Below, piece after piece: positions 12,529 to 18,500 of a DNA stretch of 64,000 nucleotides; position 1 is the stretch's first letter, and each line of letters begins with the position of its first letter. Source of the stretch: Escherichia coli (GTDB taxonomy: Bacteria > Pseudomonadota > Gammaproteobacteria > Enterobacterales > Enterobacteriaceae); NCBI RefSeq assembly GCF_009931435.1, contig NZ_CP043414.1. The stretch is one strand, 5' to 3'. A program made the position numbers.

Positions 12529-15500
12529 TGAGATGGAAAAAGAGCAGCTGATTGAAATAGCCAATACGATAATGCCGTTTGGCAAATACAAAGGGCGTCG
12601 CTTAATCGACCTGCCGGAGGAGTATCTTCTGTGGTTTGCCCGCAAAGATGAGTTCCCGGCAGGGAAGCTCGGTGAGCTAATGCAAATCACGCTGCTGATT
12701 AAAACCGAGGGGCTGACGCAACTGGTCCAGCCCCTGAAACGCCCACTTTAAGCTTTATCGGCGCTGCTTTCCTGCTGCGCCTGTAACTGTTCGGTCTGGC
12801 GTTTGTATCGACGCGCCAGCACCGCACAGACCATCAATTGGATCTGATGGAAAATCATCAGAGGCAGCACCATCATACCGATCACCGATGTGGGGAACAG
12901 AATGTTTGCCATCGGGATGCCATTTGCCAGACTCTTTTTCGAACCACAAAAGACGATAGTAATTTCATCTGCCTTATTGAAGCCCAGTCGGCGTGCCATA
13001 AAGACGTTAACTACAATCACGATAGCCAGAAGAACGCAGCTAACCACCACGATAAATAGCAATGATCCCCAGCCAACTTTATGCCAGATGCCGTTAACGA
13101 CGGCTTCGCTGAACGCAGTATAAACCACCAACAGAATGGACGTCTGGTCAGTTTTCGCAATCCATTTTTTATTTCGTGACACCCAGTTGCCAATCCAAGG
13201 GCGAGAAAGATGTCCCAGCACAAACGGCAGCAGCAGTTGCAGCATTATCTTACCTACCTGCTCAAGGCTGCCCCCTGCACCGTGAACATTCATCACCAGG
13301 CCAACCAGCAACGGTGAAAGGAAAATCCCCAGTAGGCTGGATGCTGACGCAGAACAAACCGCCGCCGCGACGTTACCGCCCGCCATTGACGTGAAGGCGA
13401 TTGCAGACTGCACGGTCGCGGGGAGAATGCACAAGTAGAGAAAACCGGAGTAGAGCATCGGGTCGACATTTACCGGTTTCCACCAGGCAAACAGCACGCC
13501 CAGAATTGGAAACAGCACGAAGGTGCTGCACATTACCCACAAATGCAGTCGCCAGTGACCACCGCCAGCAATAATCGCCTCACGCGACAACTTCGCGCCG
13601 TGCATAAAGAACAGCAGAGCAATAGCTGCGGTAGTCAGATTTTCAAAGAAGGGAACGAAATCGCCCCTGGCCGGAAAGAAAGAGGCCAGCAACACCACCG
13701 TGATCAGGGTTAAGGTGAAAGGATCGAGGATACGAAAAAGTTTCATAAAGACTCCAGATGAACGATGCTTTCATTGTGCGTTCTTCTGATTGATAAATAA
13801 AACTGAATTGCTTAACAATTTGTGCGCGATAATGGAGAGTGAGTGGGGGCTCGCTTCGACTGGCGGGCTGAGTTGGGCAAGCAAATCCGAACGAATCAAA
13901 TAAGGGCGGTCAATGAGTGCGCTTGATGACCGCTGTAATATTATTGCTGACGACCGTAGCCGTTTTAGTGTTATCAACGCAGGCTTAGAACTGATATTTT
14001 ATTGAATAAATAATGCCATCCTGGAGGAAGGCTTCACCCAGTTTATTATCTGCGTAGCGATATTGAATCCCTGCCGTAAAATGCGGTGTCGCATTCCACC
14101 AAAACGCTACTGCTCCGTTTATACCTTCTTTTCCGCCATTACCTGCTGCATATGTAGCGTCGCGGTCAAATTCGTATTCATTCCAGTTAGTCAGGCTGAA
14201 TTTTTCGCTACCAAGCGTGAAACTGTATCCGGCAACCCAGCCCAAAACATAGCCATTGTCACCGGTATAATAGGTTTGATCGGTGTAACGTTTCGCGAAG
14301 AATGGCTTAAACCAGTAACCATTTCCCGTAAAATTGTATCCAAGCCCGTAAAGGAATGTATCATCATAGAAGTTAACACGTTCAGGTGAACCGTAAGTCC
14401 CGTAAGCGTGAAGATAAAGATTCAGTCCTGTATCACCAAGATAAATGCGGTTGGTACTTTTAAAAGTATAACGTTGTTCACTGCCAGATTTTGAATGTCG
14501 GCCATTATAGAAGTTCTCCCAATCGAAGAACCCGTACATTTCTCCCCAACTAAAGTTAGCACCACCTTCTAATTCCAGATAGCCAAAATCATCTTTATGG
14601 GACTTATTACTGGTTTTCTCTGTCGTGCGGGATGTCCAGTCAAGATAATGCAGACCAATGTCAGCAAAGCCCCCTTTAAACTCGGCATAAGACATTTGCG
14701 GAAAAGCCATGGGAACCAGACCAAGGCTTAATGCAAGAAGCTGTTTTTTCATAGTATGTTCCACTTAAGTAATAAATTTAATGAATGTGATATGCTTACA
14801 TATTTATGCTGTAATTATTTGGCATGTCTATTTTATTAGATTTATGACAGCTCTAACCAATACATAATTATCACGTAATGATAGGGTGTCGATCTGAATG
14901 TCTTCAGGATTGATATCAAATTGCAATTGATATCCGTGGTAAAAAGTATTGGTAAATGTGATGAATTTCCGGTTATTTAAAGGGGGCTCAAAGTCGAAGG
15001 AGAAGATGGTGAATCTAAAACTACAATTAAAAGTACTTTCATTTCTGCAATTCTTTTTGTGGGGAAGTTGGCTCAATACATTCGGTTCCTATATGTTTAT
15101 CACGCTGCGTTTTAAAGGCGAGGATATTGGTGCAGTCTATAGTACCTTGGGTATTGCAGCATTAATAACATCAACGTTATTTGGTATCGTGGCCGATAAA
15201 TGGATTAGTGCTAAATGGATATATGCCGCTTGTCATTTATTTGGCGCGATAACATTATTTGTCGCTGCATCGGTTACCACGCCTTCGGCAATGTTCATTG
15301 TCATTTTACTTAACTCTCTCGTGTATATGCCAACGCTCGGTTTGAGTAATACAATTTCCTATTACCGCATACAAACTGCGGGGATGGATATTGTGACAGA
15401 ATTTCCACCAATCCGTATTTGGGGCACGATTGGATTTATTGTCGCGATGTGGGCGGTGAGTTTGGCAGGTTTTGAATTAAGTCATATGCAATTGTATATC

Positions 15501-18500
15501 GGCGCGGCAGCTTCGTTAGGCTTGAGCCTGTTCACGTTGACATTACCGACTGTACCAGTGGCGAAATCTAACCAGGCGCAAGGAATGATAGACGTGCTCG
15601 GACTGCGTGCATTTGCACTGTTTAAGAACAGCAAAATGGCGATTTTCTTTATCTTTGCCATGCTGCTCGGGGCAGAACTACAAATTACCGGGATGTTTGG
15701 TAATACATTTCTCCACAGTTTTGAGAGTGTTCCAGAGTTTGCCAATAGCGTTGTTGTAACTCATGCTTCTATTTTGTTATCAATTTCTCAGATATCCGAA
15801 GTCTGCTTCATTCTTGCCATTCCCTTTTTCCTGAAAAAATACGGTATCAAAAATGTCATGCTGATGAGCATGGTGGCCTGGACGCTGCGTTTTGGTTTAT
15901 TCGCTTATGGCGATCCTTCATTCGGCGGTACCATTCTGTTAATTCTTTCGATGATTGTTTATGGCTGTGCTTTTGACTTCTTCAATATATCTGGCTCGGT
16001 ATTTGTTGAACAAGAAGTTGATCCATCGATTCGTAACAGCGCTCAGGGCGTTTTCCTGATGATGGCCAATGGTTTTGGTTGTATTCTGGGCGGTTTTATC
16101 AGTGGTAAAGTCGTCGATTATTTAACAACGGATGGCAATCCACAGTGGTCAACCATTTGGCTGGTATTTGCCGGATATTCACTGGTTCTGGCTCTCGCAT
16201 TTATGGTGTTGTTTAAATATAAACACAACAGTAACCCGACAACATCCGGTCATTTCGCCTGATACGGAATTTATCAAAATTAATAATGTTTTATAGGATT
16301 AGCAAAGGAGGATATTATGGCAAATCAATTGTATAACCAGTGTCGGGTTTATTGTGCACCCTGGCGATTAGATGCTTTGAATTTAAATGATATCATTGAT
16401 CAATGGATTGACGAGGGGCTGTTGCCGCCCCTGATCCATACTTTTCTTCCATATCGTGATGATGCCGGTGCCTCCAGTGAAGAAGAGATTTTTGTTAATG
16501 ATGTCGCGAATATGGACAATAGTGTTGGGGTTATCGGTTATTTCGATGGTGGAACCTATGATTCCGGTTGTGCATGGGAAGTAGGCTATGCATGGGCTTT
16601 AGGGATGCCTGTTCACTTGGTAACGACAGACTTTCTTATATGGGCAGCGGGGAATTCTTCAGAGTTTTACCCTATAAGTAAGCTGATGAATTATGTGGCA
16701 AAAGTGGTTTCGGTGTCAGATTCCGATGCTAGCATCAGCAACTATCGTGAACAAACCAACGATATCATCAAGCGTGCGTTGCAAATTCTTCAACAAAATT
16801 TAATCGCCGACTTCGGCACGACGATTACTCCCGCTGTACCGATTACGCCATTTCCGATTGAGTATGACTATTATCTTGATCCTAACTTTATGTATACCGA
16901 ACCCTCTCGGGGCTTACTGGAGAAAATCAAAGATGCGATCATTAGTGCAGGTAAGACTTTCATCGTTGGCGACAATATGAATGATATTGCGACTGATATT
17001 GATAACTTAAGAAAATCCAGACAGGCCATCTTTTATTCCGATACCTTTGAGCCGAATGTCGACACCGGTATTATGAATGGTATTGCCTATGCATTAGGAC
17101 AGCAATCGATAGTTTATTGTAGCAAGCAACAAAAGTATCAATCTGCGCTCGCGACAGATTATTTGAATTTAATGATTACCTGGTCGTCAACGGTGGCGCA
17201 TTCATTTGCGGAGCTTGAAACATTGATTGGTAACACAGAAAAATAATAGTTAATTTTACTGATTATCAGGTGAGTGATTGCCTGATAATCAGCTTTTGGT
17301 TAACCTCCAAAGATAATTATACGGCCGTTATATTTCTCTGCTGGGGAACGATATGATCGATTTCATAATCATATTGAATATCACAGAAAAATGTATTGGT
17401 CACTCGCGACTTTTTCTAGTTATAAAAAGATGCGACTCATATCTTACGAATAATGCATATTATAAGGACTTTCCATGACCCAACCTCATTTTTCACAAAA
17501 CCCGTGGTATTGCGCAGATATCATTCGTCGACATAAACCAGATTTTACCCCACGCGTGGTGTTTATTTTGGGATCGGGGCTGGGAGCGTTAGCTGAACAA
17601 ATAGAAGATGCTGTTGCCATTTCTTATAGCGATTTGCCGGGGTTTCCGGTGAGCACCGTACATGGCCATGCAGGAGAGTTGGTCCTCGGAGTGCTCTCTG
17701 GTGTGCCTGTAGCCTGCATGAAAGGTCGCGGTCATTTTTATGAGGGCCGGGGAATGACAGTCATGACTGATGCTATTCGCACGTTCAAGTTGTTGGGCTG
17801 TGAATTGTTGTTCTGCACCAACGCTGCAGGTTCGCTTCGTCCAGAAGTCGGTGCGGGTAGTCTGGTTGCGCTGAAAGATCACATTAATACGATGCCAGGC
17901 ACACCGATGACAGGCCTTAATGATGAGCGTTTTGGCGAACGCTTTTTTTCATTAGCGAATGCTTACGATGCTGATTACCGCGCCGTTTTACAAACCGTCG
18001 CGCAGGAAGAAGGTTTTCCGCTGACAGAAGGGGTTTTTGTTTCTTATCCGGGCCCGAACTTCGAAACGGCGGCAGAAATTCGCATGATGCAGCTGATTGG
18101 TGGCGATGTTGTGGGTATGTCTGTAGTGCCTGAAGTGATTAGCGCACGTCATTGCGAAATGAAAGTCGTTGCCGTGTCCGCAATAACCAATATGGCAGAA
18201 GGCTTAAGTGATGTGAAATTGTCGCATGCCCAAACCCTGGCTGCAGCAGAGTTATCACGGCAAAACTTTATTAATCTGATTTGCGGATTCTTACGCAAAA
18301 TCGCCTGAAAACAATAAAAATGGCCTCGCGGATGGGGCCATCTCACTGCGATAAGGAAATAAAACATGAATATCGCAACGCGTTTAAAGGTAATGTCTTT
18401 CTTACAATACTTTATCTGGGGGAGTTGGTTAGTTACCCTCGGCTCTTACATGATTAACACCTTACATTTTACCGGGGCTGATGTCGGTATGGCATACAGT

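Follow-up and report, generated by a model that had tools for sequence, protein, structure and literature searches.

A 64,000-nucleotide stretch of Escherichia coli contig NZ_CP043414.1 (assembly GCF_009931435.1; the window, to which positions refer unless another locus is named) carries, between yfeN and xapA, a nucleoside permease gene followed by a gene for a protein with two nucleoside 2-deoxyribosyltransferase (NDT) folds in one chain. We see about even chances that the two form a bicistronic operon within the XapR regulon of a rare, divergent yfeN-xap haplotype and supply the cell with a base-exchange or base-cleavage enzyme. Both genes had been proposed in a first-pass annotation made from the sequence alone, and open reading frames (ORFs) of the predicted lengths were found:

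15006-16262, + strand: NupG-like nucleoside:H+ symporter (NHS family, MFS), ATG start, 418 amino acids, identified with TIGR00889.
16317-17246, + strand: tandem NDT-fold protein, 309 amino acids, identified by two PF05014 matches.

RefSeq starts the permease at GTG 15009, giving 417 amino acids. The same annotation had placed only an intergenic region at this spot in K-12, correctly: the order in MG1655 is ligA-ypeB-yfeH-yfeR-yfeN-xapA-xapB-xapR, with a yfeN-xapA gap of 248 bp.

In the 309-amino-acid protein, PF05014 matched residues 41 to 106 (E = 5.9e-11) and residues 225 to 286 (E = 0.03); no NCBIfam model matched. A family profile searched against PDB sequences matched NDTs down to E = 3.3e-9. 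The AlphaFold2 model (20 homologues; pLDDT 90.8, pTM 0.92) has two flavodoxin-like halves, in which strands and helices follow one another in the same order, with a long connecting helix (residues 143 to 166), and adopts the flavodoxin-like NDT fold. The halves were delimited as follows:

16317-16826, + strand: N-terminal NDT domain, residues 1-170, with the nucleophile motif, predicted to be catalytically competent (codons of Asp62 at 16500-16502, Asp82 at 16560-16562, and Glu88 at 16578-16580).
16848-17243, + strand: C-terminal degenerate NDT domain, residues 178-309, without the Glu nucleophile.

In the N-terminal half, which bears FDGGTYDSGCAWEVGY, the stretch FDGxxYDSGCAWEVGY lines up with the nucleophile motif seen in solved NDT and PDT structures. 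D82 and E88 fall on the Asp and Glu of that motif in 7M5H, 7O62, 6EVS, and 1S2D, and D62 falls on the upstream Asp. Within a family alignment of 103 two-domain representatives plus the query (104 sequences), D62, D82, E88, and G90 are kept in 103 to 104 sequences; position 17 holds a conserved basic residue (Arg/Lys in 100 sequences), not assignable to a phosphate site from sequence. Cleavage of an N-glycosidic bond through Glu88 is likely on this evidence.

Aligned with hhalign, the N-terminal and C-terminal halves matched each other at E = 0.003, with E88 opposite M253; C-half positions matching E88 hold L/I/M/V or Q/L/I across the family, never Glu. The C-terminal half has conserved residues of its own, namely, D188 (D/E in 101 of 104 sequences), E195, D242, and G255 (104/104), and the ratio of nonsynonymous to synonymous substitution (dN/dS) lies between 0.05 and 0.25 for both halves, as under purifying selection. 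Because of these residues, and because its dN/dS falls in the same range as that of the N-terminal half, the C-terminal half is by these measures not decaying. Active sites of classic NDTs are completed by the adjoining subunit of a homo-dimer or homo-hexamer, and for that reason we infer that the 309-amino-acid protein forms an asymmetric pseudo-dimer within one chain and has a single active site. The earlier placement in the NDT-like family thus holds, on the PF05014 match and the fold, for a protein that is no ordinary NDT, being a tandem fusion whose second half lacks the nucleophile. Sequence and fold searches found no solved tandem-NDT structure, and the C-terminal domain alone had no PDB sequence match. 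A literature search for this tandem architecture, or for the permease-NDT pair, found no relevant paper, in agreement with the first-pass annotation, to which no characterized E. coli gene with this pairing was known.

The permease stop and the ATG of the NDT-like gene are separated by 54 bp, with a ribosome-binding site (AAGGAGG, 16306-16312) five bases before the ATG, and a terminator scan between the two genes found none. Since the gap is short, the ribosome-binding site strong, and a terminator present only after the pair, the two genes are, as predicted from these signals, their own transcription unit, separate from xapAB. The regulatory features are:

14909-14979, + strand: promoter of the permease-NDT operon, a PxapA paralogue, with a dyad/operator at 14909-14945, −35 element TTGGTA at 14949-14954, a 19-nt spacer, and a putative −10 element TATTTA at 14974-14979.
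17259-17292, + strand: intrinsic terminator with a 15-bp stem and a 4-nt loop, then CTTTTGGTT; the top-ranked terminator-like site in the scan.
17356-17403, + strand: xapA promoter/operator of the window, the reference copy of the shared core, located by core and position weight matrix (PWM) matches.

A 47-bp segment from the K-12 spacer between yfeN and xapA matches both 14909-14955 (79% identity; E = 1e-5) and 17356-17400 (76%). The shared core reads ATYGATWTC...ATTGAW...GTATTGGT, with TATWWA 19 nt further on, and a degenerate 23-mer derived from it occurs exactly twice in the window (0 expected). Using a PWM trained on four xapA promoters only (K-12 type, window, cryptic Escherichia, and E. 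albertii), the permease site ranked second in the window with 29.4 bits, against 8.4 bits for the next best site and a background of −31 ± 9. Seven promoters, including K-12 PxapA and that of a Citrobacter copy of the module, align without gaps over 27 invariant columns; the Citrobacter module keeps the core though it has no adjoining xap genes, and the core is also present in a cryptic Escherichia lineage. Two allele groups of the pair exist in E. coli, and between them the core is nearly invariant, whereas the spacer towards yfeN is much more diverged. Induction of PxapAB is reported to need two XapR sites, of which one overlaps the −35 element and the other lies upstream of it (PMC7205307); by the published positions, the conserved core covers exactly the interval of these sites. 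Because of this promoter paralogy with PxapA and the placement of the core over the reported interval, XapR is the most likely activator, and we are fairly confident that the operon is under an XapR-type promoter. The nucleoside-themed supercluster described in the first-pass annotation is strengthened accordingly, as a copy of the xapA promoter and operator precedes the permease-NDT operon.

Other searches for regulatory elements gave little. A generic sigma-70 promoter scan was uninformative (15 sites versus 15.4 expected), and a look by eye only at the yfeN-permease spacer found no convincing consensus match for CRP, CytR, or DeoR. A riboswitch or other cis-acting RNA in the operon leader was rejected: Rfam matches at E ≤ 1 over 13500-21200 comprised four tRNAs and two subthreshold chance matches. 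One of the latter, to sraL (20517-20631, + strand; 26 bits versus a gathering threshold of 39; E = 0.012), runs across the 3′ end of the xapR-like gene; this match probably arose by chance. In Citrobacter, the core lies ~230 nt upstream of the permease start (L013 6340-6577; L numbers denote compared loci), versus ~25 nt in Escherichia, leaving a long untranslated leader without an Rfam match; the LysR-type gene upstream of that module was ruled out as an XapR orthologue, as it is only 24 to 27% identical to XapR and YfeR.

Facing yfeN, the window has an inverted GTATTGG, the −35 element of xapA-type promoters, at 14854-14861 (− strand), followed by a possible −10 element, TAAAAT; the K-12-type yfeN-xapA spacer has the same inverted element (L002, ~6859-6866). 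The full operator PWM gave no match at this yfeN-facing element. To judge from the element, yfeN may share XapR control.

The permease scored 634 bits against TIGR00889 (cutoff, 446.1) with full-length coverage. It is 74% identical to K-12 NupG, without gaps, and 61% identical to the adjacent XapB (NupG versus XapB, 58%), which makes it by sequence a NupG-like paralogue rather than a XapB-like one. Two details of the first-pass annotation are corrected here: the permease is more than about half identical to XapB, at the 61% just given, and it is the fourth rather than the third NHS-family permease, since E. coli has NupG, XapB, and YegT (PMC8042404). The NupG pocket residues R136, T140, F143, Q225, N228, Q261, E264, Y318, and F322, plus D323, were compared. 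Nine of the 10 are kept (8 of 9 in the pocket, plus D323), including the ribose contacts R136, T140, and E264. The exception is Asn228, which is Gly in all five module-linked permeases and remains Asn in NupG and XapB; the Citrobacter permease with the same Gly228 is only 86% identical to that of the window. NupG N228 forms a hydrogen bond with the base; uridine binding is lost in N228A, and base contacts are thought to set specificity (PMC8042404). Because the change sits at a base-contacting position while the ribose contacts are intact, the permease probably has a base preference differing from those of NupG and XapB. Of the earlier view of a distinct paralogue with a probably different substrate, the substrate part is thus favored by the altered base contact, and the kinship is to NupG, not XapB. 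The Asn228Gly permease is a natural specificity variant, so predicted, of a structurally characterized transporter.

Relatives of the enzyme are few and recur beside nucleoside genes. Among 5.8 billion proteins, a word-indexed search found 35 clusters, whose sources were Escherichia, E. albertii, Citrobacter, and metagenomes. When 1.84 billion representatives were searched exhaustively with a profile, 19 proteins matched at E < 1e-30, and ~100 proteins with two domains matched at E < 1e-10. A scan of 100,044 species genomes, seeded on two short conserved peptide patterns and hence able to miss more divergent members, found full-length relatives in six representative genomes: two labeled E. coli and E. 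albertii and four from Clostridiales/Lachnospiraceae (Enterocloster aldenensis, "Clostridiales bacterium 1_7_47FAA," "Lachnospiraceae bacterium M18-1," and a Clostridiales metagenome-assembled genome [MAG]). Remote two-domain relatives in AFDB (TM, 0.77 to 0.86; ~20% identity) carry automatic names only and come from Deinococcota, Streptomyces, Thermomicrobiales, and a CPR bacterium. The cluster members of ten distant relatives likewise bore no informative names. The gene neighborhoods outside the Escherichia xap locus, in which PNP stands for purine nucleoside phosphorylase, are:

Lachnospiraceae and uncultured gut bacteria: DeoR, NDT-like gene, DeoD-type PNP, DeoC, (phosphopentomutase), Bmp-type nucleoside ABC importer.
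Second operon type: DeoR, NDT-like gene, DeoC, PunA-type PNP, CUT1-type ABC importer.
Enterocloster: PunA/XapA-family PNP, CUT1 ABC importer, then the NDT-like gene.
Uncultured gut bacterium (L004): PNP, GntR, NDT-like gene, Bmp ABC importer, PfkB.
Clostridiales MAG: NDT-like gene adjoining an IU-type nucleoside hydrolase gene.
Citrobacter: the same permease-NDT pair at an unrelated chromosomal locus, then an adenine deaminase gene on the same strand.
Distant homologue: NCS1 (cytosine/purine-type) permease, Tmk-like, PfkB, Fe-ADH, cytidine-deaminase-like, and HD nucleotidase-like genes.
Other distant homologue: NCS1 permease, radical-SAM/SPASM, Nmad3, Tmk-like, and UDG-family genes.

A PNP gene of DeoD or PunA/XapA type is adjacent in six of nine non-Escherichia neighborhoods (L004, L006, L011, L019, L021, and L098), and in Escherichia xapA next door is its counterpart. 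DeoC is adjacent in four of the nine (L006, L011, L021, and L098), and phosphopentomutase is present in at least one. Every neighborhood has a nucleoside or base transporter, and the regulators are of DeoR or GntR type. The gene content of the two distant NCS1-permease loci (L099 897-7223 and L097 1566-8041) hints at metabolism of modified pyrimidines in those branches. An Rfam scan of nine homologous loci at gathering thresholds found nothing upstream of NDT-like genes except one cobalamin riboswitch (RF00174; 109.8 bits; L004 5863-6056, + strand), ~420 nt upstream of the PNP gene. It lies between an ethanolamine-utilization microcompartment cluster and the PNP-GntR-tandem NDT-Bmp ABC-PfkB cluster, either of which may own it.

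In the window, the pair belongs to a larger block that differs from K-12 throughout. The block and the genes in and beside it are:

13810-20590, no strand assigned: divergent "long" yfeN-xap haplotype, in place of the K-12-type yfeR-yfeN-xapA-xapB-(DUF1427)-xapR, delimited with blastn against a K-12-type genome.
12748-13746, − strand: yfeH (ORF and RefSeq), preceded in the gene order by ligA and ypeB.
13985-14752 (or 14764), − strand: yfeN allele encoding a Tsx/OmpK-family outer membrane nucleoside channel (ORF), divergent from the permease gene.
17475-18308, + strand: xapA, phosphorylase (ORF, RefSeq, and identity to K-12).
18366-19622, + strand: xapB, permease (same evidence).
19697-20581, + strand: xapR-like LysR regulator gene, the presumed regulator (same evidence).

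YfeN scored 434.8 bits against the YfeN equivalog model NF008574 of NCBIfam (cutoff, 282); the RefSeq label of its coding sequence is OmpK. Downstream of the xapR-like gene are tRNA-Lys, three tRNA-Val genes, and then gltX. Positions 13747-17474 are 100% identical to E. coli R32_14_1F, in which the pair is annotated as "nucleoside permease" and "nucleoside 2-deoxyribosyltransferase."

Against the K-12-type genome, blastn aligned the flanks at 96.6% identity up to 13809 and from 20590; inside the 6.8-kb block it aligned coding regions only, at 72 to 77% DNA identity, and yfeR is missing. Protein identity to the K-12 type is 86% for YfeN, 90% for XapA, 89% for XapB, and 79% for XapR, whereas the flanking LigA and YfeH are 99% identical to their K-12-type counterparts. 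By these comparisons, the yfeN-xapR block is a deeply divergent haplotype and no two-gene insertion into a K-12-like locus, the horizontal gain that the first-pass annotation had suggested. The GC content of the permease and NDT-like genes (0.42 each) is, as had been noted, below that of core genes (ligA, 0.55; yfeH, 0.52), with third-position GC of 0.43 and 0.42, respectively; yfeN (0.43) and xapB (0.46) share this AT-richness, which makes low GC a trait of the whole locus and not of the pair alone. The yfeH-yfeN gap is 238 bp in the window (13747-13984), and K-12 has the LysR gene yfeR there (L101 6931-7857). Between xapB and xapR, the window has a 75-bp gap (19623-19696), versus a small DUF1427 ORF in the K-12-type locus (L002 9214-9372).

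The pair is accessory, as proposed: it was found in 15 of 5,426 complete E. coli genomes, in single copy and on the chromosome every time, and a search for plasmid-borne copies of the module found none. Carriers include IAI39 and CE10 and fall into the two allele groups (99.8% and ~96% identity). The long haplotype has three forms: with yfeR and yfeN kept (locus L016; representative labeled E. coli), without yfeR (the window and six other genomes), and without both yfeR and yfeN (LHM10-1 and GF4-3). It was also seen in the cryptic Escherichia lineage and in E. albertii, which, like Citrobacter, has the pair as well; E. albertii has NDT-xapA-xapB-xapR, with a XapA 96% identical to that of the window versus 89% to that of K-12. 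Price et al. described repeated transfer of the xap cluster among gammaproteobacteria (PMC2395238). Shortened NDT-like alleles occur in GF4-3 (303 amino acids; L100 6420-7331) and as forms of 176 to 267 amino acids in E. albertii and Escherichia sp. assemblies; they may reflect gene loss in some lineages or assembly fragments.

Our proposal for how the operon works is as follows. XapR with its inducer would switch on the permease-NDT operon together with xapAB. A nucleoside whose base is poorly handled by NupG and XapB would cross the outer membrane, possibly via YfeN, and be imported by the permease. Glu88 would then attack C1′, releasing the base and leaving a covalent (deoxy)ribosyl-enzyme, with the dead C-terminal domain standing in for the second subunit of the usual NDT dimer to complete the single active site. 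The sugar would be passed to a purine acceptor (xanthine, hypoxanthine, or guanine), giving a nucleoside that XapA can phosphorolyse and so regenerating the acceptor; without an acceptor, the sugar would go to water. The net effect would be a wider range of (deoxy)nucleosides usable as a pentose source by the phosphorylase-based pathway. We tentatively favor base exchange coupled to a phosphorylase over plain hydrolysis, at somewhat under even chances, because of the recurrent PNP adjacency and because the nearest characterized relatives are transferases.

Several points weigh against this proposal. Identity to characterized NDTs is only 16 to 24%. The haplotype's XapR, whose binding is predicted from promoter similarity, shares just 79% of its residues with that of K-12. 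With DeoA, Udp, Cdd, DeoD, and XapA present in E. coli, base exchange adds nothing obvious for canonical nucleosides. A PfkB sugar kinase in two homologous neighborhoods and an IU-type nucleoside hydrolase in one fit a pentose-releasing hydrolase at least as well as a transferase. Transferase and hydrolase, and deoxyribo- and ribonucleoside substrates, are not separable by sequence.

Those same PfkB and hydrolase neighbors feed the strongest rival, a plain nucleosidase that would split an imported, probably noncanonical or modified (deoxy)nucleoside into free base and free pentose, with the phosphorylase as a parallel route. NDT-family enzymes are all known to hydrolyze when the acceptor base is absent, and a dedicated permease with an altered base contact suggests an unusual substrate beyond the host's standard enzymes. 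However, the closest solved relatives by sequence and fold are true nucleoside transferases, ranking above nucleotide hydrolases; the recurrent PNP and DeoC adjacency is more economically explained by enzyme coupling; and no deoxyribokinase is encoded beside the module in the window. We regard this alternative as rather unlikely.

A (deoxy)nucleoside 5′-monophosphate N-glycosidase resembling DNPH1/Rcl, MilB, and BlsM would yield base and deoxyribose 5-phosphate, the latter directly cleavable by DeoC. Those enzymes are single-domain proteins that act on 5′-monophosphates and show lower similarity to this family, whose module partners are nucleoside importers: every neighborhood has a nucleoside or base transporter, not a kinase making deoxynucleoside monophosphates. 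Sequence and structure alike rank nucleoside transferases above nucleotide hydrolases, and the phosphate-binding serines of DNPH1 are not confidently mappable, leaving this reading improbable.

That the pair is a relic, silent or in decay, and all that remains, AT-rich and silenced by H-NS, of an ancestral locus lost by most E. coli, would fit its presence in only 15 of 5,426 complete genomes, its low GC, and the shortened alleles (303 amino acids in GF4-3 and fragments of 176 to 267 amino acids in the protein database); strong purifying selection on both domains (dN/dS, 0.05 to 0.25), intact reading frames with a good ribosome-binding site, a promoter core better conserved than the surrounding spacer between alleles, and retention of the pair at another locus in Citrobacter make it very improbable. 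We give hardly any credence to the idea that the protein is an NDT/TIR-superfamily effector, toxic or defensive (for example, a glycosidase acting on NAD+ or nucleotides in the manner of the NDT-like effector of retron-Eco1), that lies beside xap by coincidence, as PADLOC returned 0 matches, a PHROGs search matched only a weak generic NDT family (E = 8.8e-8), there is no plasmid copy and no reverse transcriptase, noncoding RNA, or other defense gene nearby, the neighbors across phyla are consistently catabolic genes and transporters, and the promoter is of a kind shared with xapA.

The phosphorylase-coupled reading, taken further, would set the family apart as a new class of catabolic enzymes for nucleosides among gut bacteria, with a single active site made of one live and one dead half. 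Such an enzyme would use a recycled purine as carrier and act as a funnel into a phosphorylase/DeoC pathway for nucleosides refractory to phosphorylases (pyrimidine, damaged, or modified [deoxy]nucleosides), and in Escherichia it would be wired to XapR along with a NupG paralogue of altered base specificity; we put this forward with considerable reserve. If this reading holds, strains such as IAI39 and CE10 would have a nutrient niche that K-12 lacks. If the PNP coupling alone is true, the family offers a new (deoxy)nucleoside catabolic route and a natural single-chain NDT scaffold. For E. coli, the textbook xapABR switch would gain a second operon in a minority of strains, the extraintestinal pathogens IAI39 and CE10 among them, and a strain-specific locus would gain a concrete function. 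The enzyme belongs to an uncharacterized subfamily of ~100 clusters at 50% identity among the 1.84 billion representatives, one with a consistent place in nucleoside catabolic operons, both of gut Clostridia and of some Enterobacteriaceae.

Taken singly, the parts are of known kinds (NHS permease family, NDT superfamily, and XapR regulon). What is new, as far as sequence comparison goes, is the fused, half-inactive enzyme architecture, of which no solved or studied member was found; the place of this enzyme as a fixed component of nucleoside catabolic operons; and an apparent duplication of the xapA promoter, driving a second operon with a pocket-variant NupG paralogue. From NDT class II and PDT class I enzymes (Lactobacillus leichmannii 1F8X, L. 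helveticus 1S2D, Chroococcidiopsis 8PQT, and Desulfotalea 7O62), the 309-amino-acid family is separated by the low identity given above and by having two NDT folds in one polypeptide, the second without a nucleophile, where NDT/PDT are homo-oligomers of ~150-amino-acid subunits. Classic NDT genes are stand-alone salvage genes, and their enzymes are known as biocatalysts for nucleoside analogues, whereas the genes of this family lie in catabolic operons that also include transporter and phosphorylase genes.

With deo-type operons of Firmicutes (DeoR; DeoD, DeoC, and DeoB; Bmp/PnrA-type importer), the likeness is that genes for homologues of 42 to 46% identity head operons of this kind in Lachnospiraceae, Enterocloster, and uncultured gut bacteria; a literature search found no published deo operon containing an NDT-fold enzyme. 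In Escherichia, XapA, XapB, and XapR take the place of DeoD and DeoC as partners. NupG is the permease's closest characterized likeness, in ungapped identity and in nine kept residues, and the differences are the Gly at position 228 and the pairing with an enzyme gene under an XapR-type promoter, where nupG is a stand-alone gene controlled by CytR, DeoR, and CRP. With K-12 xapABR, the module shares chromosomal position, promoter core (dyad plus TTGGT −35 element), and the logic of pairing a permease with an enzyme that, as predicted here, cleaves N-glycosidic bonds; it differs in that two operons would replace one, in xap genes 79 to 90% identical to those of K-12, and in a second enzyme with another fold and predicted covalent Glu chemistry rather than phosphorolysis.

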